Positions 6,706 through 58,903 of a stretch of 64,000 nt of DNA are shown here, in pieces (positions within the stretch are counted from its first letter, which is position 1; every line of letters starts with the position of its first letter). This DNA is from a virus (taxonomy: Duplodnaviria; Caudoviricetes), in the IMG/VR virus record IMGVR_UViG_2681813214_000004, positions 8,537-72,536 of that record; one strand, given 5' to 3'. A program made the position numbers and the translations under genes. The notes under the pieces are model-generated. The model searched no databases. It saw nothing but the letters and a program-made list of their open reading frames with translations, and was not told the origin of the DNA.

Positions 6706-6906
6706 ATGGATACTTTCGATACTTGGGAAGATGTTCCCCGTGGTGTGATTGTGCTAGATAAAAGCCCCTTTCCAATGTACTTCTTAAAGTTGGATAATGG
6801 CGAGTTCGCGTACAACTCTGCCGAGAATGACATCACGAATGGTTGGTGCAGCTTCAAGGTGGGGTTCCTCCCAGGCTTGGGTCCTTTTGAGCGGGTTGCG
6901 CTGTGA
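6706..6906 (+). CDS. Hypothetical protein
   Basis: ORF coupled to the Pnkp gene. Confidence 0.55.
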   Translation: MDTFDTWEDVPRGVIVLDKSPFPMYFLKLDNGEFAYNSAENDITNGWCSFKVGFLPGLGPFERVAL

Positions 6907-7820
6907 CAGCCCTCATCTGTATGCGCGGCTACGTGGCGTCGGGGAAGTCCACGCGCGCCCGTGAAATCGCTAAGGAAACCGGTGCAGTCGTAGTGAATCG
7001 GGATCTTCTACGTCTCCAGCTTCTCGGCTCCTACTGGACTGGTGATCCGGATGATGAGTCTCGGGTGTCTGTGGCCGAGGAAGCTCAGGTGTTGGCGTTG
7101 ATGAATGCCGGGGTACCTGTGGTTGTGGATGCAACTCACCTGGTGGCGTCGTATCTGCGGAAGTGGGCTCGGATGGCCACCCGCTACGGCTGGGAGTTCC
7201 ACGTTGAGGATGTGCCGACTCCGATGGATGTGTGTCTGGAGCGGCTAAGACGCCGCAACCGGGAATCGGATCGCATCATTGAAGCATCGGTTTTGTTCAA
7301 TCAGGCTAAAAGGTTCCCGATTAATCGTTGGCCTGTGATAACGAAGCGTGAGTTCAATCCGATACCGGTGGGCCGTCAGATATGCCTTCCGAGGGCGATA
7401 ATTGTCGATATAGACGGCACGCTTGCAGAAAAAAGCGACCGCAGCCCATATGACTACTCTCGGGTCTATGAAGATGGCCTGTATCAGGATATTGCGTTCC
7501 TGATAGATAGGCTGACCGACAACACCAGTTACTACACGCTAATTGTGTCTGGCCGCGACGATACGTGCCGTGATGAAACGATGGAATGGCTAGTTAGTCA
7601 CGGGATCTACTACGACGAACTCCTTATGCGCGAGACCGAAGTAGATATCGATGAGTTCGGGGGGAAGCTTCCCGATTTTGAAGTGAAGTATCGCTTATTC
7701 GATGAGTACATTCGGGACAAATGGTGTGTCGACTTTGTGATTGATGATCGCCGTCAGGTTATCGATATGTGGCGCGGTATCGGGCTGCGCGTACTCGATG
7801 TAGCAGGAAACGACTTTTGA
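6903..7820 (+). CDS. Polynucleotide 5'-kinase/3'-phosphatase (T4 Pnkp-like)
   Basis: P-loop GYVASGKST with NRD motif; C-terminal HAD phosphatase DIDGT, SGR and DDR motifs. Confidence 0.92.
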   Translation: MTALICMRGYVASGKSTRAREIAKETGAVVVNRDLLRLQLLGSYWTGDPDDESRVSVAEEAQVLALMNAGVPVVVDATHLVASYLRKWARMATRYGWEFHVEDVPTPMDVCLERLRRRNRESDRIIEASVLFNQAKRFPINRWPVITKREFNPIPVGRQICLPRAIIVDIDGTLAEKSDRSPYDYSRVYEDGLYQDIAFLIDRLTDNTSYYTLIVSGRDDTCRDETMEWLVSHGIYYDELLMRETEVDIDEFGGKLPDFEVKYRLFDEYIRDKWCVDFVIDDRRQVIDMWRGIGLRVLDVAGNDF

Positions 7821-8119
7821 TGGATAGTTTACCTAAACCACCGGCTGGATACCGTTGGAAAATCAAGCCCGTCGGCTGGGGGACAAGAAACTTTTACTTG
7901 ATAAAGCTCACGCGATTTGGTGTCACACGTGACAGTGAAAACTTCCTTGGTGAAGACATTATTTGGGGGCAGTGGGTGGCTTCAGAAGAGTGTTTTCGCA
8001 AGAATGCTGCCAGAGCGGCTACAAAGATACTTAATCGTTATGGCAAATCGTTTGATGGCAAATCGTTTGATTATCTATGCGCAGAAATGATAGATGAGCA
8101 GCGCAAGGGGGAGCTTTAG
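7820..8119 (+). CDS. Hypothetical protein
   Basis: TGATG coupling; contains a 15-bp tandem duplication (GKSFD x2). Confidence 0.55.
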   Translation: MDSLPKPPAGYRWKIKPVGWGTRNFYLIKLTRFGVTRDSENFLGEDIIWGQWVASEECFRKNAARAATKILNRYGKSFDGKSFDYLCAEMIDEQRKGEL

Positions 8120-8323
8120 ATGCCTAAGAGTTTGAAAGATAAACACCGTGACCGTCCTTGGTTCGACCGTGAAGGCGATCTATGGTTTTGGGATGACGAC
8201 AAAGATAAGTGGCATGTCTGCTACTACTCTGTGTTAACCAACCTGTGGCGCGGCACTGTCCATTCAGGAATCCCTGAGCGTGGCTTCGGCCCATACCGTC
8301 TAGCTGTTCCCAAGGTTGACTGA
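8120..8323 (+). CDS. Hypothetical protein
   Basis: Trp-rich small ORF in operon. Confidence 0.55.
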   Translation: MPKSLKDKHRDRPWFDREGDLWFWDDDKDKWHVCYYSVLTNLWRGTVHSGIPERGFGPYRLAVPKVD

Positions 8324-8687
8324 GTATGTAATCACCGTCCCCTGGCCACGGCCACCGATGCTTACGAACGAGTATCGGAACGCCCACCACTACAAACAGG
8401 CTAAAGCGAAGAAGGAAGTCGCTGAAGCTGTGTCTTGGCTGGTGAAACAACAGCGCATACCGGCGCTTGGACCGTCAAAGGTTGAAGTCTGCTGGTTTGT
8501 TCCAGATAAAAGGCGTAGAGACAATGATTCTCTTGCCGCCTTCTTTAAGGCTAGTTGTGATGCGATGGTGGATTGCGGTGTTTTTCCCGACGACTCGTAT
8601 ACGTACATAACTTACAGCGGCATGTGGATTGACGCTACCCAAGTTAAGAAACCCCGTCTAGAGATCAGGATTACCCCAGATGATTGA
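8316..8687 (+). CDS. rusA: RusA-like Holliday junction resolvase
   Basis: PDKRRRDNDSL...KASCDAMVDCGVFPDD and terminal RLEIRI. Confidence 0.88.
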   Translation: MTEYVITVPWPRPPMLTNEYRNAHHYKQAKAKKEVAEAVSWLVKQQRIPALGPSKVEVCWFVPDKRRRDNDSLAAFFKASCDAMVDCGVFPDDSYTYITYSGMWIDATQVKKPRLEIRITPDD

Positions 8688-9099
8688 TTTTGAGCCGCCG
8701 CCTTTCCGTGACGGTATTTGCCGAGAGACTGATCCTGATCTGTTTCACCAAATAGATAGGGGTGGTGTTGAGGCGGCGAAACGGGTGTGCCGTGGATGCC
8801 CCCGGATGTTGGAGTGCCGGGACTGGATTTTGGACTTGGAGGCCCGTTTAGGTGAACGCCAGTCGGGAGTTTGGGGCGGTTTAGCTGCCAGGGCTAGGCC
8901 TAAGCCTAAGAAAGTGTTTTGCGGTTCGGGTCTTCATCGTATTGATGAGTCTTGGGATTTCGAGAATGGTCGGTGCTCGGCTTGCCGATCTGAGGCGCAG
9001 CGCCGTTTGGATGCCGAGAAGATTGCGGCCCGCAGGTCTGCCCGGTTGGCGGATTCGTATTCGTGGATGGATGAGGTAGACGCACCATGGGCAAGCTGA
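8680..9099 (+). CDS. whiB: WhiB family transcription factor
   Basis: C...DPDLF...AKRVCRGCP...C...GVWGG; extra C-terminal Cys/His cluster. Confidence 0.9.
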   Translation: MIDFEPPPFRDGICRETDPDLFHQIDRGGVEAAKRVCRGCPRMLECRDWILDLEARLGERQSGVWGGLAARARPKPKKVFCGSGLHRIDESWDFENGRCSACRSEAQRRLDAEKIAARRSARLADSYSWMDEVDAPWAS

Positions 9100-9100
9100 A

Positions 9101-9559
9101 ATGACCACTCCGCAGCATACCCGGAATCTCCGGGAATGGATGTTCCAAGCACACGCCATAGACACCGGGGACGGAATGAAAACGCTCTGTGGTGAGTGTG
9201 GTGTTGAGTTGTCGATGGAAACTATGTCTATCGGGCATTGGCCTGTCCCGGACTATTTGGGTGGTACTCGTACTCGTAATAATGTGCGCCCGGAGTGTTT
9301 CGCCTGCAATAACGGCGAGGGTGGGGATATGTCGAAACTTCCTGCGAAGTTGGTGTGGGAGATTGTTTATGAGCGGGCTACGGGGTTTGTGTATGTGCGT
9401 AAGATGCGTGCACTTGGGTTGACGCCTATTCGTGTGTCTCCGAATTTCGGGAAGGTGTATCGGAAGGCGAAGCTTCAGGGTAGGCCGTGGACTGGTTTGC
9501 CGCGTAATTATCCGTGGCAGGCCCGTATTTGGCGTAATCCGGAATTGAAGGTGTCGTGA
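9101..9559 (+). CDS. HNH endonuclease-like protein
   Basis: CGEC...GHWPVP...GG...NNVRPECFACN. Confidence 0.7.
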   Translation: MTTPQHTRNLREWMFQAHAIDTGDGMKTLCGECGVELSMETMSIGHWPVPDYLGGTRTRNNVRPECFACNNGEGGDMSKLPAKLVWEIVYERATGFVYVRKMRALGLTPIRVSPNFGKVYRKAKLQGRPWTGLPRNYPWQARIWRNPELKVS

Positions 9560-9963
9560 AAGCAGAACGCGTAGGATTTACCGGCACCCGTAAAGGTCTC
9601 AGCGCACAGCAGCAAGACTGGCTGCTGTCGACCCTGCCTATGGCAGAGATACATCATGGGGCGTGCAGGGGTGCAGATGAAATGATGCACTGCTACGCGA
9701 TGGCCGGGGACCGGCCCGTTGTTGTGCATCCGCCGATCAAAACAGATCTCCGAATGGACTACGACCCTGGCGCCACGTGGCTTCCCGCCAAGGATTACCT
9801 GGAGCGGGATAGAGACATTGTGGATGCGACGGAGGTTCTGTTCGCAACACCGGACGGACCGGAGCGCAATCAGTCCGGCACTTGGTACACCGTCCGGTAC
9901 GCGGTTAAGGCCGGAAAGCCGGTGTATATCTGCTATCCGGACGGCTCCCTGGAGCAGCGGTGA
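9556..9963 (+). CDS. SLOG-superfamily (DprA/YspA-like) protein
   Basis: GFTGTR, HHGACRGAD, RDRDIVD, SGTWYTVRYA and GKPV motifs. Confidence 0.75.
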   Translation: MKAERVGFTGTRKGLSAQQQDWLLSTLPMAEIHHGACRGADEMMHCYAMAGDRPVVVHPPIKTDLRMDYDPGATWLPAKDYLERDRDIVDATEVLFATPDGPERNQSGTWYTVRYAVKAGKPVYICYPDGSLEQR

Positions 9964-10589
9964 ACCCGGATGTTGTTCACCGCTGCCTGTCTAAACGTGA
10001 CTGTGTAAACCTCACTGGGGATAAGGAACCTGCGGCCACTAAACGGCAAGACACACTCTGCCACGGCTGCATCACACAAATCCAGCAGCACATGGAGCGT
10101 TTACCGCACTTGTTGTCGGCCCTCAGATTGTCTCTGGGGCGTTCTATGGGGTCTTCCCTTGGCGGTGGAAGGGTATCGGGCAGTAAAGAGCCCCCAGCGC
10201 CATTCAACGTGAATGTGGATGCTGTTTTGGTTGACGCTGTTGAGGTTGTGGAGCGTGCCGGTGGTTGGCAAGTGCGGGTAGCGGATTTGGTGAACCGCAC
10301 CACGGAGCCGTTCACGGTGTGGAGGAACGGGCACAGACGCGACAATTATCCCCTGTCTGGGGTGGACCGCGCACTTGATATCCGCCGCGTGTATCGACTG
10401 GTTGACAAGATGACAGGTTTCTCGCCTGTGTGGTCACGGAAGCCTGGTAATTGTCCGGGATGCAGTTTACAAACGCTGGGCTCTATGAGCGGCACCGATT
10501 TAGTGCAATGCACGAACTCGGCATGCGGTATCAGCTTCACGTTTGATGAGTATGAGCGCGATTGGGCGCCGAAAGCAGGTAAAAAATAG
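9960..10589 (+). CDS. Zn-finger hypothetical protein
   Basis: N-terminal CHGC; C-terminal CPGC...CTNSAC. Confidence 0.6.
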   Translation: MNPDVVHRCLSKRDCVNLTGDKEPAATKRQDTLCHGCITQIQQHMERLPHLLSALRLSLGRSMGSSLGGGRVSGSKEPPAPFNVNVDAVLVDAVEVVERAGGWQVRVADLVNRTTEPFTVWRNGHRRDNYPLSGVDRALDIRRVYRLVDKMTGFSPVWSRKPGNCPGCSLQTLGSMSGTDLVQCTNSACGISFTFDEYERDWAPKAGKK

Positions 10590-11081
10590 ATGAGAGCGTA
10601 TTTCGACGCTTGCGCAATGGTTGAGGATGAGCTTCATTCACAAGTGGCGGGCTATCCGGAGTCACTTTTTGTGTTGCCGACTGGGGCTTGGCTGGATTCG
10701 GACACATACTTTCAAGGACGTGCGGCAGACAAGATCCGTGTTCAGGATCGGTATGGGCGTGGACACGATGTTCAACTGACTGATCACCGGTATTGCAAAT
10801 TAGAATTGCGGAACGACCAGCTTGAATTGAGGCCATCTGAGTTTGTGCGGCGGGCACTGCTTCCCGCAGTGGCGTCACTGTCGGAGAGTTACAACTGTAC
10901 TGTCCTGAACTCTGACGCCCCAGTGATTGTTACGCGTGCACCTAGGCCGGTGCATGGCGATAAACCTGGAGGATATCTCTCTATTAATGGTGTTGATATG
11001 CGGTGGATGGTCATGTATGACCCCACCACTATCTGTGATGCATTGACTGTGGATTTCTATATGGGCATGTCGGAGAACTAA
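10590..11081 (+). CDS. Miniature major-capsid-protein paralogue (P-domain only)
   Basis: Residues 61-99 align ungapped to own MCP 80-118 (14/39 identical); residues 113-159 align ungapped to MCP 231-277 (12/47 identical). Confidence 0.8.
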
Positions 11082-11082
11082 A

Positions 11083-11505
11083 TTGAACGATACAATGATT
11101 ACGGTCGTCGGCAATTTGACTGCGGACCCGGAATTGCGGTTCACGCCGTCTGGTGCTGCGGTCGCCAACTTTACGGTCGCGTCCACGCCTAGAACTTTTG
11201 ATCGTCAGAGTTCGGAGTGGAAGGACGGTGATCCGCTGTTTCTTCGCTGCAATATTTGGAAAGAGGCTGCGGAGAATGTTGCGGAGTCTCTTGTGCGGGG
11301 TTCTCGGGTGATTTTGTCTGGCCGGTTGAAGCAGCGTTCGTTTGAGACTCGTGAGGGTGAGAAGCGTTCGGTGTTTGAGGTTGAGGTTGATGAGATCGGC
11401 CCGTCTTTGCGGTATGCGACGGCGAAGGTTTCTAAGGCCGGTAAGGGTGGTTCTAAGCCTGCTAATGACAGTTGGGCTGCCGCCGACGATTCGGCACCGT
11501 TTTAA
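11083..11505 (+). CDS. ssb: Single-stranded DNA-binding protein
   Basis: [32 protein letters not shown], actinobacterial SSB type; acidic tail ending DDSAPF. Confidence 0.97.
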
Positions 11506-11517
11506 GCGAGGGTTGCT

Positions 11518-11826
11518 ATGGCTGAGAATCTTATTAATCTAACTCCGGACGATATTACAAATATTGCCATAAATCTTTACGAGAAGCACGGCGAGTATCA
11601 GGGCGGTGTTGCGTGGAGAACTCTGGTTGTGCGTGTTGTTGATGCGATGGATGACTATCGAAACACATTTCCGGAGTATCAGCTACGTGTGCACCCAGAC
11701 GGGTCGGCTGTTCGTAGGCGGGGAGGCGAATGGCACTGGGTTTATCCGTCAGGAGAAGCGCCGCCAGTGGTGCCACCTATCCCTGATGTTTGGAGTTGGA
11801 CAGTTGCGTACGAGGGGGATGACTAA
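11518..11826 (+). CDS. Hypothetical protein
   Basis: GAGG RBS; in operon. Confidence 0.6.
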   Translation: MAENLINLTPDDITNIAINLYEKHGEYQGGVAWRTLVVRVVDAMDDYRNTFPEYQLRVHPDGSAVRRRGGEWHWVYPSGEAPPVVPPIPDVWSWTVAYEGDD

Positions 11827-11957
11827 TGTTTCGGTGTTCTGAGTGCCGTAAGCCTATCGGGTTGATGGTCGATCCTAAGGGTAAGCCTGAGTTGTTTAAG
11901 TGCCCACATTCGGGGCGTGTGGCTTCTGCGATAGAAAAGGGCAGTTGGGGGAAATAG

Positions 11958-12287
11958 GTGGCTGAACTTGCCATCGGGGGATACTCGGATGATCTAGTGG
12001 AATTCTCCGGGGTATTCACTGAAGAATACTGCATCTATGAGGCGACGACGTTCCTGGTGACCATAGATATTGGTCACGATCGGGCGCAGTTCGAAGTGCT
12101 TGCCGAATTCGGTAAAGCGGACTGGCAGCTAGCGGTCCGCGTCAGCTCCATGCAGTCGAATATTCCGGTAGTTGTTCGTTTCGATCAAACTGATAGCCCG
12201 GGGTTTGATCCGATGATTGTTTTTGAGTTCGATGATGATGCGAAGGTTCGTGTCATTAAGGTTGGGGGAGAAGATGACGAAGATTGA
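11958..12287 (+). CDS. Hypothetical protein
   Basis: IGGYSDDLVEF motif; GGGGGAAA RBS. Confidence 0.6.
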   Translation: MAELAIGGYSDDLVEFSGVFTEEYCIYEATTFLVTIDIGHDRAQFEVLAEFGKADWQLAVRVSSMQSNIPVVVRFDQTDSPGFDPMIVFEFDDDAKVRVIKVGGEDDED

Positions 12288-13554
12288 ACTACTGGGCAAT
12301 AAGAACTACGCAATCACCGTGATTGCGGTGGGCGAACCACATGACCTTCAGGGCTTGGACAACCTCGTGGGGGTTTCAATCTATGGCCTTCAGGCCCTCA
12401 CGACTCGCGGTATCGAGGCAGGGGATCTGCGGCTGTTGTTTGTGAGTGAGGCACAGATCGGTGAACGGTTCGCGCACGAGAACGATTTGAATCGTAAGGC
12501 CGAGTCCAACAAGACGGAGGCGACCGGGTTTCTGGAGCAGAACCGGCGTGTGCGCGCGATTAAACTGCGCGGCCACGTCAGTAACGCCCTGCTGATGCCG
12601 CTCGACTCGCTGGCCTACACGGGTCTGGACACGTCCTCGCTGAAGGTTGGGGACACGTTCGACACCGTTAATGGAGAAACCGTCGTCCGAAAGTACGAGG
12701 TCCCCGGTAAGGGTGTTCAGGGTAAGCCGGGGCAGCCGAAGATCCGGCAGCGCGTGGACCAAAAGCTGTTCCCGATGCATCTGGACACGGAGCATCTGTT
12801 CCGGAACATGCAGGTGTTCCGTGCCCCTCGGCGAGTAGTGGTCACGCAGAAGTTGCACGGCACTTCTATCCGTATTGGCCGGGTTCCGGCCGCCCGCGAT
12901 AAGGGCTGGATTGAGCGGGTTGTGGTCAACAAGTGGCTGGGTATCTCTACCCCGGAAACGGCTTACGAGGATGTGGCGGGGTCTCGCAGGGCCATCAAGG
13001 GCCGCGACGACAACAACCACTACTACGACTCCGATATTTGGGCCGAGTACGCGAAGCGCCTTGAGGGAATGATCCCGGAGAACTTCATCGTGTACGGGGA
13101 GTTGATCGGGTGGGAGTCGCCGGAGAAGCCGATCATGCACGGCTACACCTACGACTTGAAGCCTGGCGAGCGGGAGCTGTACGTGTACCGGGTCGCGACA
13201 GTGAACGGCCAAGGTGTTATCGCTGATTTGTCATGGGAGGGTGTGGAGCAGTTCTGTGCCGCTATCGGGGTCAAGACTGTACCGACACTGGATATTCAGA
13301 CTATTTACTCGCCAATGGGCTTGGACGATGACCAGTACTTGTATGAGTTCACGGAATTGCTGGACGTGAATTATTCCACTGTTGGCTACCCGGATGCAGT
13401 GCCGCTATCAAACCCGAAGTCTGTCGATGAGGGCTTCTGTTTGCGTATTGAGGGGCAGGTTCCCCGCATCTACAAGGCGAAGTCGCCATTGTTCTTTGAG
13501 CATGAGACGAAGCTGCTCGATAAGGGCGAGGTCGATCTAGAGAGTGTGGCCTGA
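12274..13554 (+). CDS. ATP-dependent RNA ligase with N-terminal OB-like domain (DRB0094/Rnl5-like)
   Basis: Motif I TQKLHGTS, motif III VYGELIG, motif IV DEGFC, motif V YKAKS. Confidence 0.88.
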   Translation: MTKIELLGNKNYAITVIAVGEPHDLQGLDNLVGVSIYGLQALTTRGIEAGDLRLLFVSEAQIGERFAHENDLNRKAESNKTEATGFLEQNRRVRAIKLRGHVSNALLMPLDSLAYTGLDTSSLKVGDTFDTVNGETVVRKYEVPGKGVQGKPGQPKIRQRVDQKLFPMHLDTEHLFRNMQVFRAPRRVVVTQKLHGTSIRIGRVPAARDKGWIERVVVNKWLGISTPETAYEDVAGSRRAIKGRDDNNHYYDSDIWAEYAKRLEGMIPENFIVYGELIGWESPEKPIMHGYTYDLKPGERELYVYRVATVNGQGVIADLSWEGVEQFCAAIGVKTVPTLDIQTIYSPMGLDDDQYLYEFTELLDVNYSTVGYPDAVPLSNPKSVDEGFCLRIEGQVPRIYKAKSPLFFEHETKLLDKGEVDLESVA

Positions 13555-14244
13555 ATGGGCATTGGGCGTAAAGAAAAGCAGCTTTTAGACGATATCGTTG
13601 TCTCTGAGAATGCGGCGGATCGTGAGCTGAAGGAAGCTCAGGCGCGGAAGGCGAACGCCGAAGCTGATCTGCTCGATTTGGAATACGCGTTGATCGCTCG
13701 GGCTACGCAGCTTTCACTTGATAGTGATGAGTACTGCGAATACCACTTCGCCGGGGATGTCGATCACGATTCTGTGACTGATTGTTTGGCACAGTTGAAG
13801 TATTGGGATCGGCAGGCCCCTGAGTGTCCGTTCAATATTGAGCTGACATCGCAGGGTGGCTCGGTGTGGGATGGGTGTCGCCTGTTCGATTATCTGGTGG
13901 ATTGGTCGATACGGGGCGGCGGATCGCATGAGATAACTATCCGGGTTCGGGGTATCGCGGCGTCTATGGCGTCTGTGTTGTTGCAGGCTGCTGATCATCG
14001 TGTGATGGGGCGGGGGTCGGTGTTGATGATCCATGAGTCGGCTATGAATCCGGGGTTCGGGCGTAAGTCTGCTTTGGAGGATGCGTTGCGTGCTTTGGAG
14101 GTTGAGGAAAGGTTCTCTGACCCGATTTTTGCGGAGCGCGCGGGGTTGTCTGTTGAGGAGTTCCGGGAGTTGTATCGGCGCCGGGATTTGTGGCTTACAC
14201 CGGATGAGGCGCTGACTATTGGGTTTATAGATCGGATTGGGTAA
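13555..14244 (+). CDS. ClpP-like serine protease
   Basis: SQGGSV, AASMAS (catalytic Ser) and LMIHE (catalytic His). Confidence 0.9.
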   Translation: MGIGRKEKQLLDDIVVSENAADRELKEAQARKANAEADLLDLEYALIARATQLSLDSDEYCEYHFAGDVDHDSVTDCLAQLKYWDRQAPECPFNIELTSQGGSVWDGCRLFDYLVDWSIRGGGSHEITIRVRGIAASMASVLLQAADHRVMGRGSVLMIHESAMNPGFGRKSALEDALRALEVEERFSDPIFAERAGLSVEEFRELYRRRDLWLTPDEALTIGFIDRIG

Positions 14245-14589
14245 ATGGATTCTTTGAGTGCTTTCGCGCGTGGTGAGGCTTCGCGCGGTAATCGTATTCG
14301 TGTTTTCGATTGGGTGCGTGCAGCGGAGATTATTCGTGATGCGAAGCCTGAGTATGCGTCTGCTGGGTTAGCTATGGATTGGGAATACACGGGAGGGCTT
14401 ATCTACGATGATGGCGCCCCTGTGCCTATCGATGATACTTACACGTATCTCGCTTCTACATGGGCTACTCCCGAGTTGAAAATTGATGGGGATGTCTTGG
14501 ATTGTTGGACCTGGGCTGACGAGTCGGGCTGGGACGCAGGGACGTACTGGCCGGAGGAAGCGTTAGAGGTACTTAACGGGGGCGTGTAA
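14245..14589 (+). CDS. Conserved phage hypothetical protein
   Basis: VFDWVRAAEII...AGLAMDWEYTGGLIY...YLASTWATP. Confidence 0.65.
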   Translation: MDSLSAFARGEASRGNRIRVFDWVRAAEIIRDAKPEYASAGLAMDWEYTGGLIYDDGAPVPIDDTYTYLASTWATPELKIDGDVLDCWTWADESGWDAGTYWPEEALEVLNGGV

Positions 14590-14825
14590 TGCTGTTTTAT
14601 TTGGGTGAGTTGTTGAATTGGTATCGGGGTTTGTTTCGGCGCCGTAAAGAGTTGGGTAGACCTGCGACAGCGGTTGAGTTGTTGAGTGTGCGGAACAATG
14701 AGCCGTTGGGTGTTCCGGAGCGCTATCAACTGTTGAGTGATCAGGTTGAGGCTGGGCAATACGGGGTGGTACCTGATTCTGTTGAGGTGTTTCCGTGGGA
14801 TCGTCGGAGGGCGGACGATGAGTGA
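14589..14825 (+). CDS. Hypothetical protein
   Basis: TAATG coupling. Confidence 0.5.
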   Translation: MLFYLGELLNWYRGLFRRRKELGRPATAVELLSVRNNEPLGVPERYQLLSDQVEAGQYGVVPDSVEVFPWDRRRADDE

Positions 14826-15027
14826 CTATTATAAAACGGGGTTTGAGCAGGATGTGCTGGGAATCCTGAACGATATCCGAAAGACGCTTAATGAGGCGTT
14901 GGAGATTCAGAAGCGGCAATGGGAACGTGTGCTCCCGGGCATAAATATTACGGGTCGTGACATTGCCAATGTCGCGGGGGATGACTCGGCTAATCGGCAG
15001 AATTATCAGGGGAATCCGCGGCGATGA
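14818..15027 (+). CDS. Hypothetical protein
   Basis: Coupled ORF. Confidence 0.5.
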   Translation: MSDYYKTGFEQDVLGILNDIRKTLNEALEIQKRQWERVLPGINITGRDIANVAGDDSANRQNYQGNPRR

Positions 15028-15353
15028 GTGACCGTCTTACGCTTTCCGATGGATGCGTGCTTGTTGCGGAAGTCGGGGATTGGGATTACAGCTGGTGGAC
15101 ATGTGGCGTGTTCTATAACCCGTCCACTGGGAAGTTCCATGTTGAAACGGACTGCGGATGCTCGTGTTATGGGCCGTGGGAGGACGTGCGCTCTGCGGCG
15201 GATTTCGACTCCTCGCCCACGAGTCTGGCGGAGTCAATCAATAGCATCCGATCTACAGTCACGAATGTGCGCCTATGGGATGGGCGCGAGGAACTAATTC
15301 GCGAGCTACGCGACTTTTATCAGGCAGAGAAGCGGAGGTCCCGGAATGGCTGA
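15024..15353 (+). CDS. Conserved actinophage hypothetical protein
   Basis: DYSW...GVF...TDCGCSCYGPWE motif. Confidence 0.65.
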   Translation: MSDRLTLSDGCVLVAEVGDWDYSWWTCGVFYNPSTGKFHVETDCGCSCYGPWEDVRSAADFDSSPTSLAESINSIRSTVTNVRLWDGREELIRELRDFYQAEKRRSRNG

Positions 15354-15690
15354 CCAGGATTTGTGGTCTTCTGGGGAACGTGTGGCCGCTTTGAAAGCTA
15401 TCTTGGATGATGGTGGGGATGCGACTCTCCGGAAAATTGAGGCTGCGATCTCTAGGTTCCGTGAGGGCGACCCGCTCGGGGTTGTGCGTAAGGGTTCGGG
15501 GTCAACGTTTTCTAACAGTCCGGTGCTGTATGCATTCTCGCTGGGTGGGGGCCGATGGCTTGTCCAGGGTGATGGTGTATCTGAGACGGTCTACAACTTG
15601 GAGAATGGTCAACATATTAAGGGTTGGGAGAAAGTCTACGACCCGAGGTCTGGGTGTCTGTGTGATTGCGACGAGTACGACTACTACTAG
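15346..15690 (+). CDS. Hypothetical protein
   Basis: Coupled ORF. Confidence 0.55.
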   Translation: MADQDLWSSGERVAALKAILDDGGDATLRKIEAAISRFREGDPLGVVRKGSGSTFSNSPVLYAFSLGGGRWLVQGDGVSETVYNLENGQHIKGWEKVYDPRSGCLCDCDEYDYY

Positions 15691-15782
15691 TGGGGGCGTT
15701 TGTTGATGGATGAGTTTGATGAGGTGTTTTGGGATGATGACGACTATCCCCATACGATGGAATTAGACGAGTACTAATCGCC

Positions 15783-15959
15783 GTGGATGAGTATCTGCAT
15801 TTGGATGTCGAGGAGATGCGCCGAGCCGCCAATAAGCTCGGCGTGTTCCTTGATCGTGCAGCGTTGAAACGCAAGGTGGAGTTTGATCCTGAGTTTGTTT
15901 TGCGTGAGGTGTTGCAGTCTATCAACAATTACCGGGTAATGAAGGGGACAGAAGGATGA
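15783..15959 (+). CDS. Small hypothetical protein (not in ORF track)
   Basis: GTG start MDEYLHLDVEE...; ATGA overlap with the next gene. Confidence 0.45.
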   Translation: MDEYLHLDVEEMRRAANKLGVFLDRAALKRKVEFDPEFVLREVLQSINNYRVMKGTEG

Positions 15960-16273
15960 GCGAACCCGATAGCGTGCTGGCTCACCAGTTCTGGCTTTAT
16001 GGTAAGGATCGTAAGAAGCTGGAACGGTTGAGCAATAAGATCGTGGATCTGATCTTCAAAAAGTTCGGCTCGGATATCGGTGTTCTTACGTCAACTTTTG
16101 CGAACGCAGACGATGTTGAGGAGAACGCGGCTGAGCGGGCGCTGAAACGGTTGAGCGGTCCCGTACCGAAGCCGTGGGGCAAGAACCAGACGCATACTCA
16201 CGCCTATAATTCGGCGATCCGTCATGCTGAGCGGGTTATCCGCGAGGAACTGACGAAGTATCACGGCCTGTGA
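15956..16273 (+). CDS. Hypothetical protein
   Basis: ATGA coupling. Confidence 0.55.
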   Translation: MSEPDSVLAHQFWLYGKDRKKLERLSNKIVDLIFKKFGSDIGVLTSTFANADDVEENAAERALKRLSGPVPKPWGKNQTHTHAYNSAIRHAERVIREELTKYHGL

Positions 16274-25904: not shown

Positions 25905-26228
25905 GTGAGGGAATCGGCGTTGGATCATGCCGCGCTTGAGGCTGTCGGTGGTGGCCGGGTGCTTTATGCGTGTAAAAGCTGGGAGCGGGCGCGTGAAGCG
26001 TTGGAGGCTTTTGAGAGTCGCGGGTATTGGGCGGTTAAGAAGGTCACTCGCTCGTTTGGGGATATGCGGGTTGTTTTTGAGTCGGGTGGCGTTGTCACGT
26101 TTCTGAGTGCGACTCCGCACTCATCTCGTGGTTTTGTTGCTGATCTTTTGTGCCTCGATGGGGTTACTGATGAGCGGACGTTGGAATGTCTGCTGCCGTG
26201 TACGCGGGGTGCGGTGTTGTCTTTCTAG
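25905..26228 (+). CDS. Truncated terminase ATPase-subdomain paralogue
   Basis: GGVVTFLSATPHSSRGFVADLLCLDG...LLP aligns to own TerL GGFVRYISRNKDSGRGFTEIDLVVGDE...LLP; no Walker A. Confidence 0.7.
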   Translation: MRESALDHAALEAVGGGRVLYACKSWERAREALEAFESRGYWAVKKVTRSFGDMRVVFESGGVVTFLSATPHSSRGFVADLLCLDGVTDERTLECLLPCTRGAVLSF

Positions 26229-29609: not shown

Positions 29610-30584
29610 GTGACTCAGCCGTCTAATCAGGACCGTCTTACACCTATCCCGGAGCTTGCCGCGTGGTATGCGGTGCAGCATCAGCGTGAGCAGGAGTCGA
29701 TTGCGGCGAAGGTGGCGGCGGGAATGCTGCTGCTGTGGCCGAATTTGGTGTTTGACCGTCTTACGGAGACCACGGAGTCGTGGCTTCACGGGGCGATGTT
29801 GCAAGTGCAGCGGGGCTGGGATGAGTCCGCTGCCGCTGCTGGTGAGTTTGTTCAGGCGTCTTTATGGTCCGTGGAACCGGACGGCCCGCCGATACCCGAC
29901 TTGAAGGTTGAGTTTCCGGCGCGGGATGTTGCGACAGCCTTGACGGTCACTGGCCCTGTGAATGTGAAGAAGCAGATGCCCGCCCCGCAGGCCGATGTGA
30001 TGGCCAAAGCGCAGAAAGCGTCAAGTGGCGCAGCCCAGACGCGGGCGTTGGATGGTGGCCGGGAGATGGTTCAGGCTCAGGTGCTGCGACTGGGGCCGGA
30101 ACGTAAGTCGCGCCGCAAGGCTGTCGGCTACGCACGCTTCACGGACTCCAATCCTTGCTATTTCTGCGCAATGTTGGCGTCTAGGGGTGCTTTCTACCTG
30201 TCTAAAGACTCGTTTAAGGCATCGAATAAGCGTTTCGAGGGTGATGGTACCGCGAAGGTACACGATCACTGCAAATGCTCTTTGAGGCCCGTTTTTTCTT
30301 TAGCTGATGGGCTGGATGATCGGGCTAAATACTTTTACAACATGTGGGTTGATGCCCAAAATACTCGGAAGTCTGGCGAAACTGCGATTCAGGCTTACCG
30401 CAGGTTTTATGTACCACCTCCACCCTACAAACTGGGTGAGGTGTTGAGTTTGGATGAGCGCCGCAATGCTATCGAGGTGTCTCGCCGTAACCGCGACATT
30501 CTTTTGTTGAATCGCGGGCTGAGGGAAGATTCCCCTCAAATTGTTTTCTGGGAGCGCACCATGGCGCTGCTGGAGCAAGGTTAA
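29610..30584 (+). CDS. Capsid maturation protease / MuF-like head protein
   Basis: GYARF...PCYFCAMLASRG...HDHCKC. Confidence 0.8.
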   Translation: MTQPSNQDRLTPIPELAAWYAVQHQREQESIAAKVAAGMLLLWPNLVFDRLTETTESWLHGAMLQVQRGWDESAAAAGEFVQASLWSVEPDGPPIPDLKVEFPARDVATALTVTGPVNVKKQMPAPQADVMAKAQKASSGAAQTRALDGGREMVQAQVLRLGPERKSRRKAVGYARFTDSNPCYFCAMLASRGAFYLSKDSFKASNKRFEGDGTAKVHDHCKCSLRPVFSLADGLDDRAKYFYNMWVDAQNTRKSGETAIQAYRRFYVPPPPYKLGEVLSLDERRNAIEVSRRNRDILLLNRGLREDSPQIVFWERTMALLEQG

Positions 30585-30662: not shown

Positions 30663-31295
30663 ATGAATGTAGAAAACGAGCCTGTCATCAATCTTTCTGG
30701 CAGCAGCGACGACGTAAACCAGATCCTTGAAGAGGCATTCGGCACGCCGAATGAGCCCAAGGTTGAGGCCCCTAAAGATGAGCCGAAGAAGCCTGTCAAG
30801 GAATATGTTGCGCCGCAATCGCAAGAGGATCTTGATCGGATTATCGCTGACCGTATCCGCAGGGTGGAAAACAAGTACAAGGACTACGACGAACTCAAGG
30901 ATCGTGCATCGAAGTATGACGACCTGGAGGCGGAAAAGGGTTCTGACGTTGAGAAGGCTACCCGCCGATACGAGAAGGCCGAAAAAGATTTAGCGGATTT
31001 GCAGGCGACTATTGCTAAGCGTGACCGGGAAGACTTGGTTCGCGATATTGGTGATGAGTTGGGCCTTCCCGCTAAGTTGCGTGCTCGCGTGCAGGGGGAT
31101 GACGAGACGGCTATTAGAGCTGATATTTCTGAACTTCTGGATGGGTTGCCAGCGGTTAAATCCGCTCCGGCTGGTCCTCCGGTGAATGCTCCAAAGGAAA
31201 AGCTGAAGCTATCAACACCTACTGATGCTGAGCCTGAGGTTTCATCGGATGACATCGTGAAGTCGATTCCACGTGGTGGTCTCAGCTTCTTCTAG
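30663..31295 (+). CDS. Scaffolding protein
   Basis: SQEDLDRIIADRI...YKDYDELK coiled-coil; precedes the MCP. Confidence 0.88.
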   Translation: MNVENEPVINLSGSSDDVNQILEEAFGTPNEPKVEAPKDEPKKPVKEYVAPQSQEDLDRIIADRIRRVENKYKDYDELKDRASKYDDLEAEKGSDVEKATRRYEKAEKDLADLQATIAKRDREDLVRDIGDELGLPAKLRARVQGDDETAIRADISELLDGLPAVKSAPAGPPVNAPKEKLKLSTPTDAEPEVSSDDIVKSIPRGGLSFF

Positions 31296-31342: not shown

Positions 31343-32515
31343 GTGGCTGACCATGAAGTTCTAAAGTCCGACATTATTGTTGATGCCGGTATTAAGTTGC
31401 TGCGCCGTGAGCGCACTCTTGGCGCGCTGGTCACTGACCATGGCCTTTCTGACTGGAGTGGCCGTCGAGGCGACACCATCACCATCCGTGTGCCGGGAAT
31501 CATGAAGGCGAATCAGCGTTTGCTTCGCGATGCGAACCGAACTCTGATTGAGGACGAGTACACCGAATACCCGATTCCGGTGAAGATCGATCAGCATCTT
31601 TACCAGGCGCTCGCCATGAAGGATGAGCAGCTGACCTTGGATATCAAGGATTGGTCGCGTCAGATCCTTTACCCGGCTGTTCAGTCTATTGCCGAGAAGA
31701 ACGAGGCGAACGTCGCCAATCTGATCGAGACGGCTCCTTACCAGGAAGTCATCACTATCGATCCGACCGACACGTTTAAGGCATTCTCTACCGCTACTCA
31801 GCGTCTTGGTGAGACCAATGTGCCGCGTCCTGGCCGTGTGCTGGTTGTGGGTTCTGCTGTTGCTACTGCGCTGCGTAATGATCCTCAGTTCCGTCATGCC
31901 GATATCTCGGGTGACTCTGCGAACTCGGCTCTGCGTGAGGCGTGGGTATCTCGCGTGTCGGGTATGAACGTGTTTGAGTCGCAGTGGCTTGCTCAGGATT
32001 CGGCGTATGTGTTCCATCCGACCGCGTTCCTGGTGGCGTATGTTGCGCCGCTGGTGCCTCGTGGTGCTGCTTATGGTGATTCGGCTTCGGTTGACGGCAT
32101 TGCGCTGCGTTTCCTGGCCGACTACAACTACAGCGGCCTGAATGACCGCTACGTGCTGGACACCTACGCGGGCTACAACATCATCGAGGACCCGGATCAG
32201 GGCTTCGTGCGTGCCGTGAAGCTGCGTCTGGCTATGACTGGGAATATCGAAGTGGTTTCTGCTGGTGGCGGCACTGTTTCTCTGGCTGTTGGCGATACGT
32301 TGCAGCTGAAGGTCCGTGACGCTAACGGTGCACTGATCACTGATCGTTGCACCTTCGTTTCCGGCACTCCGGCCAAGGCCACCGTTACGCCTGGTCCCGG
32401 CTACGAGAATGGTGGCCTGGTTACCGCTGTGGCTGCTGGTACTTCGGCGATCACTGTCACTTACGCCGGTCCTAGCGGTGCAAAGACCGCAACCGTGAAT
32501 GTGACGGTCGCTTAG
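31343..32515 (+). CDS. Major capsid protein (P22 coat-like HK97 fold) with C-terminal Ig-like domain
   Basis: GDTITIRVP, EQLTL and GIALR...YN...D motifs; C-terminal Big_2-like ATVT...GLVTAVAAGTSAITVT. Confidence 0.93.
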   Translation: MADHEVLKSDIIVDAGIKLLRRERTLGALVTDHGLSDWSGRRGDTITIRVPGIMKANQRLLRDANRTLIEDEYTEYPIPVKIDQHLYQALAMKDEQLTLDIKDWSRQILYPAVQSIAEKNEANVANLIETAPYQEVITIDPTDTFKAFSTATQRLGETNVPRPGRVLVVGSAVATALRNDPQFRHADISGDSANSALREAWVSRVSGMNVFESQWLAQDSAYVFHPTAFLVAYVAPLVPRGAAYGDSASVDGIALRFLADYNYSGLNDRYVLDTYAGYNIIEDPDQGFVRAVKLRLAMTGNIEVVSAGGGTVSLAVGDTLQLKVRDANGALITDRCTFVSGTPAKATVTPGPGYENGGLVTAVAAGTSAITVTYAGPSGAKTATVNVTVA

Positions 32516-58320: not shown

Positions 58321-58712
58321 AGCTTCACCACGCCTCGCTTCGGCTGGTAATACCAACCCACGTATTGGTACGGAACCTCGGGGAATGCCTTCAGATACCC
58401 GTCGAGCATCCCCACAAGTTCACGGTGTCGATACGTCGTGACGGCGCTCCCGGTGATGAGCGTTTCCCCATCCCACTTAGCCTCGTAGGCGCCCCCGTAT
58501 CGCATATCAATCTTCTCAATAAACTCATCGAATGAATCGACCCGGCTTGCCGTCAGGGTTCCGTATGAAACGGTAGTGCGCCCATTCTTGCGACCAGCCC
58601 ATATTGCCGTGACTACCGACAGATAGTCCATGTAGTTTCTGAATGATTTCGGGATGAACGCGTATGGGGTTTGTGATGGCGCGAACTTATCCATCAACAC
58701 GAGACTGCTCAT
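58317..58712 (-). CDS. Hypothetical protein
   Basis: Coupled ORF. Confidence 0.6.
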   Translation of the reverse strand: MSSLVLMDKFAPSQTPYAFIPKSFRNYMDYLSVVTAIWAGRKNGRTTVSYGTLTASRVDSFDEFIEKIDMRYGGAYEAKWDGETLITGSAVTTYRHRELVGMLDGYLKAFPEVPYQYVGWYYQPKRGVVKL

Positions 58713-58903
58713 TCCGCCCCTCCTTTACCTGAGTGGTATTCGCAGAAGAATCCTGTAGGTGTGGGTGTCCATGAAAAGGACTGCGCGAGATTGTCGAATG
58801 CTGACTTTTCCACATCTGGTCCTTCGGCGAACACCGTCATGTGATTCCATCGAATGCAGTTTGGCGCTTCGCAGTGGAATGTGCGGGCGATCATGCCGCT
58901 CAT
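58709..58903 (-). CDS. Zn-finger-like small protein
   Basis: CEAPNC...CEYH. Confidence 0.55.
   Translation of the reverse strand: MSGMIARTFHCEAPNCIRWNHMTVFAEGPDVEKSAFDNLAQSFSWTPTPTGFFCEYHSGKGGAE

Follow-up and report, generated by a model that had tools for sequence, protein, structure and literature searches.

A small, domain-deleted paralogue of the P22/HK97-type major capsid protein encoded among the early genes of a tailed-phage provirus

Background

The topology of HK97 gp5 underlies the assignment of domains in capsid proteins of the HK97 fold, and in shells of this fold the E-loop clasps the neighbouring subunit. In T4, the genome encodes a paralogue of its major capsid protein gp23, the vertex protein gp24; gp24 has the complete fold, is encoded by a late structural gene and builds pentons. 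The Ccm protein of SaPIbov5 is a full-length capsid homologue. It is satellite-encoded, stands apart from the main capsid gene, forms shells, is incorporated into small capsids and acts on assembly (PMC8569155). The P22-type HK97-fold major capsid proteins (MCPs) of Vilmaviridae-like actinophages (phrog_283; PF11651/PF25209) have a close structural reference in Douge gp8 (PDB 8ZDH), and the names of the E-loop, the A-domain and the other parts of Douge-type MCPs, as well as the contacts that the A-domain makes round the capsomer axis, have been described (PMC13033339).

The MCP is also a common trigger of bacterial immunity, and directly activates CapRel, Lit, Avs7/8/10 and Dsr1 (10.64898/2026.01.04.697583; PMC13728456). 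The phage protein DSAD1 acts against DSR2, which senses the tail tube protein (PMC11087589). No countermeasure built from a capsid fold appears in a review of phage countermeasures dated November 2026 (PMC13728456), and in the limited set of literature searched we found no description of a domain-deleted early capsid paralogue.

In this paper we analyse a gene, here called mini-MCP, in a window of 64,000 nucleotides that forms part of the 72.5-kb provirus record of a mycobacterial prophage. Its product is homologous to the MCP family in the N-arm, the base of the E-loop, the spine helix and the sheet of the P-domain, and shares with it the motif G-x-A-L-R-W-L-x-D-Y-D...D-R...D...G and structural similarity at Z 10.1. 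Unlike that family, it is 163 rather than 390 aa long, is encoded in the early region, matches no Pfam family, evolves 4-10 times faster and is without the E-loop hairpin, the A-domain, the C-terminal A-strand and the Ig domain. Since the fold is incomplete, the gene lies outside the head module and the Pfam threshold is not reached, we file mini-MCP as an MCP-derived family and not as a capsid protein. It differs from T4 gp24 in having lost the capsomer-forming domain and in lying among early genes. Like Ccm it is a capsid homologue apart from the main capsid gene, but it is phage-encoded and domain-deleted. DSAD1 would be a functional analogue if mini-MCP were a decoy, as it counters a sensor of a structural protein; for DSAD1 the abstract of its description reports no homology to the tail tube protein (PMC11087589), whereas mini-MCP would be a homologous mimic of the trigger itself. 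The literature searched suggests that this small family is previously undescribed.

Methods

Relatives of mini-MCP were sought by phmmer in 1.84 billion representative proteins, and 50,697 phage records were then searched with the relatives found. The correspondence of mini-MCP and MCP columns was taken from hhalign, as the minis came out badly fragmented when hmmalign was run against the MCP HMM. The tree was built on 131 columns shared by minis and MCPs. AF2 models were computed from a pooled mini and MCP alignment and from four minis alone, and were compared with known structures by Foldseek and VIA-align.

Results

The early locus

Mini-MCP is embedded in a long operon of early genes, replication and repair genes among them, that all lie on one strand, in the order WhiB, HNH endonuclease, a 135-aa gene, the phrog_1568 Zn-ribbon protein, mini-MCP and ssb; three small genes, an RNA ligase and a ClpP-like protease follow downstream of ssb. 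The genes that concern us here are:

9960..10589, + strand, Zn-ribbon DNA-binding gene, 209 aa (phrog_1568 'DNA binding protein', E 4e-51)
10590..11081, + strand, mini-MCP gene, ATG start, 163 aa in the ORF listing
11083..11505, + strand, ssb (Pfam SSB 2.4e-29; phrog_44 3.7e-47)
31343..32515, + strand, MCP, 390 aa, the paralogue of mini-MCP (Pfam PF11651 P22_CoatProtein 1.8e-11; phrog_283 3e-50)

The product of the gene at 9960-10589 has a C-terminal CxxC...C zinc ribbon with a weak match to Ogr/Delta-like zinc fingers, and the stop codon of this gene directly abuts the mini-MCP ATG; between the mini-MCP stop and the start of ssb there is a gap of 1 nt. The start at 10590 is preferred over an internal ATG at 10617 because the homologues align from residue 1 (MFDxFGMVSD) and the ATG abuts the upstream TAG. 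The GC content of mini-MCP, 51%, is near that of its neighbours. Across 8000-14500 no promoter-like site was found, and terminator-like sites were no more frequent than in shuffled sequence. The head module (TerS, TerL, portal, a phrog_193 protein at 29610-30584, scaffold at 30663-31295 and MCP) lies 16-22 kb downstream; mini-MCP lies 20.3 kb upstream of the MCP gene and does not adjoin the scaffold or portal. Coordinates, phrog_1568 and Pfam SSB thus agree with the original prediction, which had placed a 163-aa gene between a Zn-finger gene and ssb about 20 kb from the head genes.

Several other features of the region were recorded. A Pnkp gene (AAA_33 + HAD_PNKP) at 6903-7820 (+) and the RNA ligase (phrog_968, E 6e-102) at 12274-13554 (+) flank it, and suggest a T4-like tRNA-repair pair and hence a counter-defence against anticodon nucleases. 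For the RNA ligase, the listed TTG start at 12217 overlaps the preceding gene, and 12274 agrees with the gene call on an identical NCBI contig. Over the 8 kb compared (8000-16000), the provirus is 100% identical to contig LJFR01000001.1 of GCA_001296255.1, a 1.1-Mb contig of a bacterial genome, and a contig from run SRR27946752 matches it over 5.4 kb at 99.93% identity, so that the same prophage has been sampled more than once.

Relationship to the phage's own capsid protein

The MCP of this phage combines a P22/HK97-type fold with a C-terminal Ig-like domain (Big_2), and its profile matches PDB 8ZDH (Douge gp8) with an E value of 8.6e-188. Its closest relatives are 80-81% identical and include a Mycobacteroides abscessus record. 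The Ig-like domain (about 300-390) is also found on the Douge-type tail tube protein and in second MCP-profile matches of Kumao, prophiGD54-2 and one further genome (G001); the same Ig decoration domain thus seems to be carried by both head and tail.

Mini-MCP had been matched to this MCP by eye, in ungapped blocks, and BLASTP, phrog_283 and hhalign all recover the match. BLASTP aligns mini residues 44-107 with MCP 62-126 (20/65 identical, E 2e-7). The phrog_283 'major head protein' profile matches mini 107-161 at profile positions 314-371 (E 5.2e-5), and does so in 3/4 of the minis scanned, with a best E of 4.1e-7. When a profile of six minis was aligned by hhalign with one of 33 MCPs, mini 1-163 corresponded to MCP 2-281 with a probability of 99.4 and an E value of 9.4e-21; four minis against 29 MCPs gave 98.9 and 1.6e-16. 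This alignment jumps from MCP 49 to 72 and from about 126 to 236 and ends at MCP 281, and MAFFT placed the same blocks independently on the pooled sequences. The proposed pairing of GRAADKIRV with GRRGDTITI is reproduced by hhalign, with mini D47 on MCP D44, and the proposed C-terminal block reappears as mini 120-163 on MCP 236-281; all three blocks drawn by eye are thus borne out. In a PDB search with the mini profile to E <= 10, Douge gp8 was the sole credible match (E 7.3e-12). Pfam-A gave no family for mini-MCP at E <= 1, so the curated capsid threshold is not reached. These comparisons of sequences and profiles establish true homology between mini-MCP and the P22/HK97-type MCP of the same phage.

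What is kept and what is lost of the fold

Mapped on the MCP, mini-MCP divides into five segments, all on the + strand:

10590..10745, + strand, aa 1-52, N-arm-like helix and first E-loop strand with a G-x-x-x-D-x-I/V motif (hhalign to MCP 2-49)
10746..10763, + strand, aa 53-58, short turn in place of the E-loop hairpin, MCP 50-71 (MCP 49 to 72 jump; gap in all minis)
10764..10895, + strand, aa 59-102, returning E-loop strand and P-domain spine helix (BLASTP E 2e-7; model strand 58-73, helix 82-101)
10896..10946, + strand, aa 103-119, linker replacing an A-domain segment of ~109 aa, MCP about 127-235 (MCP 126 to 236 jump)
10947..11078, + strand, aa 120-163, P-domain beta-sheet, G-V-x-x-R-W-x-x-x-Y-D...D-R...D...G (phrog_283 E 5e-5)

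The first segment has 4 residues more than MCP 2-49 and is aligned with a low hhalign posterior of 0.26-0.5; its D47 is kept in 5/6 minis. In the linker the posterior falls below 0.2 and the model pLDDT dips to 56. The mini profile aligns at 47-98 with Douge gp8 66-117, and again with Douge gp8 229-278 at a domain E-value of 1.4e-6. G134, R138, W139, D144, D155 and G159 are invariant in 6/6 minis.

Three parts of the MCP are without a counterpart: the E-loop hairpin (50-71), the A-domain (about 127-235), and residues 282-390, where the final strand of the A-domain and the Ig domain are located. Two internal deletions had been predicted, of which the one of ~110 aa stands as the absent A-domain segment, and the other, put at ~30 aa, comes to about 22 aa. 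Their assignment to the E-loop and the A-domain is upheld by the structural alignments to Douge gp8 and P22 coat protein described below together with the HK97 topology. The description of mini-MCP as P-domain only is not strictly correct, as an N-arm-like segment and an E-loop stub are also kept and the MCP C-terminus is missing as well.

The AF2 model from the pooled alignment has a pLDDT of 79.4 and a pTM of 0.78, and consists of a helix (2-19), strands (34-38, 48-52 and 58-73), a second helix (82-101) and four strands within 112-160. Its top Foldseek match is Douge gp8 (E 8.7e-7). VIA-align superposes it on Douge gp8 with Z 10.1, 130 of 373 Douge residues aligned, rmsd 5.0 and 25% identity (model 17-163, chain 17-280), and on the P22 procapsid coat protein with Z 9.7, 156 aligned residues and rmsd 4.4; ranks 1-32 are all HK97-fold capsid, encapsulin or encapsulin-like shell proteins. 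Since the pooled alignment contained MCPs, this model is not independent of the sequence evidence. The AF2 model from four minis alone, at pLDDT 47.6 too poor for a fold search, has the same order of elements. As a prediction from the single sequence, the ESM Atlas model of the exact protein is an independent check on the fold, and over residues 1-163 it resembles P22-type capsid clusters with a query-normalised TM of 0.65-0.75; the language-model features likewise point to capsid families, and the AF2 model gives the same neighbours. Comparison with the capsid fold by profile and by structure, which the original prediction had proposed as a check, therefore returns HK97/P22-coat matches by hhalign, Foldseek and VIA-align. 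In the models, the fold of mini-MCP is an N-arm, an E-loop stub, a spine helix and a P-domain sheet, and the E-loop hairpin, A-domain and Ig domain are absent. With A-domain and E-loop missing, mini-MCP should not polymerise, and we infer that it is unable to form capsomers, whether hexamers or pentamers.

Relatives and their genomic neighbourhoods

True relatives in the phmmer search numbered only three; they are 158-160 aa long, with 31-38% identity. Of the long matches, P0031 (1235 aa) was rejected as false, its match being due to a 20-residue segment repeated ten times, and P0035 (2002 aa) has the same many-stretch pattern, the two showing 10 and 12 matched stretches. The search of phage records added two members from Vilmaviridae, both annotated 'hypothetical protein':

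NC_053512 57608-58093, Kumao gp93, 161 aa
MW584202 44178-44648, prophiGD54-2 gp65, 156 aa

The family thus has six members of 156-163 aa with 20-51% pairwise identity, and all six share both internal deletions and the C-terminal truncation. A search for homologues with the same deletions had been proposed along with the capsid assignment, and the five found have shared boundaries and are not random truncations. The family is rare and patchy, with 2 of 50,697 phage records and 4 other sequences. In these searches it was not found in cluster L, Streptomyces, Arthrobacter and other phages with the same MCP family; in LeBron (cluster L), searched with the family profile, only the MCP matched. When viral, genome and metagenome contigs were scanned with the mini profile, nothing came up but the IS-836 copy and full-length MCPs, and in the ESM Atlas mini-sized look-alikes form no large cluster. 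A full MCP of the same family and a complete head module are present in 4/4 mini genomes searched whole. The setting of Ccm, a satellite with no capsid gene of its own, is therefore not that of mini-MCP, and no satellite context was seen for it.

The genes next to mini-MCP vary from genome to genome: the Zn-finger gene and ssb in the window, ssb in L008, RNA ligase in IS-836, ERF/Cas4 in prophiGD54-2 and UvsX/MazG in Kumao. None of the adjacent genes recurs in every mini genome, which leaves mini-MCP with no fixed partner gene. More broadly, it lies in all cases in an early region of replication, recombination, repair and nucleotide metabolism. In prophiGD54-2, genes 57-133 are predicted to be early lytic, and M. 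abscessus prophages are mostly silent in lysogens except for cassettes near the attachment sites (PMC8092301). By analogy, mini-MCP would be an early lytic gene and not an exclusion gene expressed in the lysogen.

Two candidate associations of mini-MCP with other genes were rejected. The ClpP-like protease, at 13555-14244 (+), has 'head maturation protease' families as its best PHROG (phrog_94, E 1.7e-43), though the head module has its phrog_193 protein, and many mycobacteriophages, Faith1, Crossroads and Rumpelstiltskin among them, have a homologue annotated 'ClpP-like protease' near 57 kb. All 4/4 mini genomes have this protease, but so do about 315 Mycobacterium phage records, among them cluster L Faith1 and Crossroads, where no mini was found, and in Kumao it lies 17 kb from the mini gene. 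The other candidate is a 107-aa ORF at 25905-26228 (+), earlier read as a dead mini-terminase. It belongs to phrog_6910 (E 7e-19) and has a weak terminase-like signal (phrog_7579 E 3e-4; BLASTP against the phage's own TerL E 0.013). Among the genomes tested its sole homologue is in LeBron (58527-58793), where there is no mini-MCP, and none was found in three other mini-MCP genomes; the two 'mini' genes do not travel together.

Divergence and constraint

In the tree, the minis lie on one side of a single branch with support of 94/94, subject to a long-branch caveat, and their terminal branches exceed MCP branches in length by a factor of about 4-10. No mini is nearer to the MCP of its own phage than to other MCPs (24% versus 27-29%). 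A single branch and the lack of affinity to the own MCP point to a duplication that happened once, long ago, and then spread vertically or by mosaicism; they speak against gene conversion and against several separate origins. Between the window and L008, mini-MCP is 28% identical, SSB 34%, the ClpP-like protease and DnaB 53%, WhiB 56%, RNA ligase 66% and Pnkp 75%; mini-MCP is the lowest of all syntenic genes compared, narrowly below SSB.

The MCP residue is retained by the minis in 47% of cells at MCP columns conserved to >= 85%, versus 17% at variable columns, and conserved, family-specific replacements stand at MCP-invariant sites (T98 to E, D100 to R and Q107 to R). The window copy has lost two motif residues kept by the other minis (R151 to A and D142 to M). 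In the closest pair of minis dN is 0.47 and dS above 2.6; dN/dS can be read only as a rough bound, because every pair has reached saturation in dS and such close copies as exist are 99.9-100% identical. These sequence comparisons indicate that the minis are a neofunctionalised paralogue under a constraint of its own.

Discussion

With six divergent members that share the same two internal deletions, an apparent single origin and family-specific residues, the suggestion that mini-MCP is a selected, intact, domain-deleted derivative has held up, and we regard it as very probable that mini-MCP is a truncated MCP paralogue under selection. What the protein does is less securely judged. The peripheral face and the N-arm of the MCP remain, so that the simplest kind of mechanism would be competition with the MCP by a mimic of that face. 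We tentatively favour the reading in which mini-MCP is a non-polymerising mimic of the MCP that serves as a decoy for, or an antagonist of, a capsid sensor. It would be made early in lytic growth, before the late MCP, would act as a soluble mimic of the peripheral face, and would occupy a partner that normally binds this face of the MCP; the most likely partner would be a capsid-protein sensor encoded by the host or by a prophage, with mini-MCP as its decoy or antagonist. The early position, the fast evolution and the patchy, accessory distribution speak for this reading, as does the role of the MCP as an immune trigger. Against it, the hosts concerned have no known capsid-sensing system, fast evolution and patchiness fit other accessory roles equally well, and a fragment bound to a sensor might activate it instead of blocking it, as the Gol peptide of T4 does with Lit. 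Sensors of the Avs7 type grip mainly the A-domain (10.64898/2026.01.04.697583), which is absent from mini-MCP, and for that class it would be a poor decoy.

The same remaining surfaces could instead act on assembly. Mini-MCP may dock on MCP or scaffold through its N-arm and P-domain and, having no A-domain, stop or misdirect assembly, either of related co-resident or superinfecting phages or of its own MCP, as a holdase or timer; we consider this rather unlikely, for either target. By the HK97 topology (PMC13033339), the kept segments lie at the capsomer periphery and under the E-loop of the neighbour in HK97-fold shells, charged residues conserved in MCPs are kept (D47, R138, D142/Y143/D144 and D150/R151), every mini genome tested has an MCP of the same family, and in SaPIbov5 Ccm there is a precedent for the redirection of assembly by a homologue of the capsid protein (PMC8569155). 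An early protein would, however, meet the phage's own MCP in its own lytic cycle and risk self-poisoning, and the similarity of mini-MCP to own and foreign MCPs alike gives no sign of self-avoidance or co-evolution. Nor is the gene where exclusion genes expressed by prophages usually sit, the early regions of M. abscessus prophages being mostly silent in lysogens (PMC8092301), and the MCP-invariant basic residues of the N-arm, K8 and R22, and also D100, are not retained. The alternative that the fold has been exapted for an unrelated task in replication, recombination or repair, for example the binding of nucleic acid or of a replication protein, with capsid ancestry as history only, is in our judgement unlikely. 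It would accord with the constant presence of minis among early replication, recombination and nucleotide-metabolism genes, with the family-specific residues at MCP-invariant sites and with the long branches; opposed to it are the lack of any neighbour conserved across all mini genomes and the lack of a match to any non-capsid family in Pfam, PHROGs, PDB or ESM Atlas. The acidity of the minis is only moderate (pI 4.4-5.05), like that of the same MCP region, which counts against such a task and leaves a DNA-mimic reading unsupported.

A place in the virion or procapsid, as a cement-like, vertex or portal-proximal accessory bound through P-domain-like contacts, seems to us very improbable. We know of no HK97 shell with a subunit that lacks the A-domain. 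The Douge cement protein gp113 is on the shell although its gene number is far from the head genes gp5-gp13 (PMC13033339), so gene position alone leaves a structural role possible; yet the mini profile, in the PDB sequence search at E <= 10, returned gp8 and not gp113, and mini-MCP is absent from most phages with this MCP family. That mini-MCP is a decaying, functionless remnant of a duplicated capsid gene, or a chance resemblance, is barely credible. The motif residues lost from the window copy could be taken as decay, but six lineages at 20-51% identity have retained the open frame, the length and the boundaries of both deletions, the profile match has an E value of 9e-21, and dN in the closest pair is well below the saturated dS. 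The conserved family, the tree, the residues and the dN/dS evidence together exclude a relic.

Among the molecular patterns through which tailed phages are detected by bacteria, the capsid protein is a major one. Some mycobacteriophages may make an early, domain-deleted copy of their MCP as a non-activating mimic, which would dampen immunity based on capsid sensing, or as a saboteur of the shells of related rival phages, a possibility we hold to be doubtful as it stands. It can be tested directly, as Kumao gp93 is encoded by a cultured phage of M. smegmatis mc2 155 and the Douge capsid (PDB 8ZDH) offers a close structural reference. Kumao gp93 and prophiGD54-2 gp65 could be re-annotated as MCP-derived. 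The family keeps exactly the peripheral half of the HK97 fold, and may thus serve as a reagent for asking which face of the MCP is sensed or contacted, and whether phages practise self-mimicry. Even if its function proves unrelated to capsids, it would be a rare documented case of an HK97 fold pared down to N-arm and P-domain and kept under selection.
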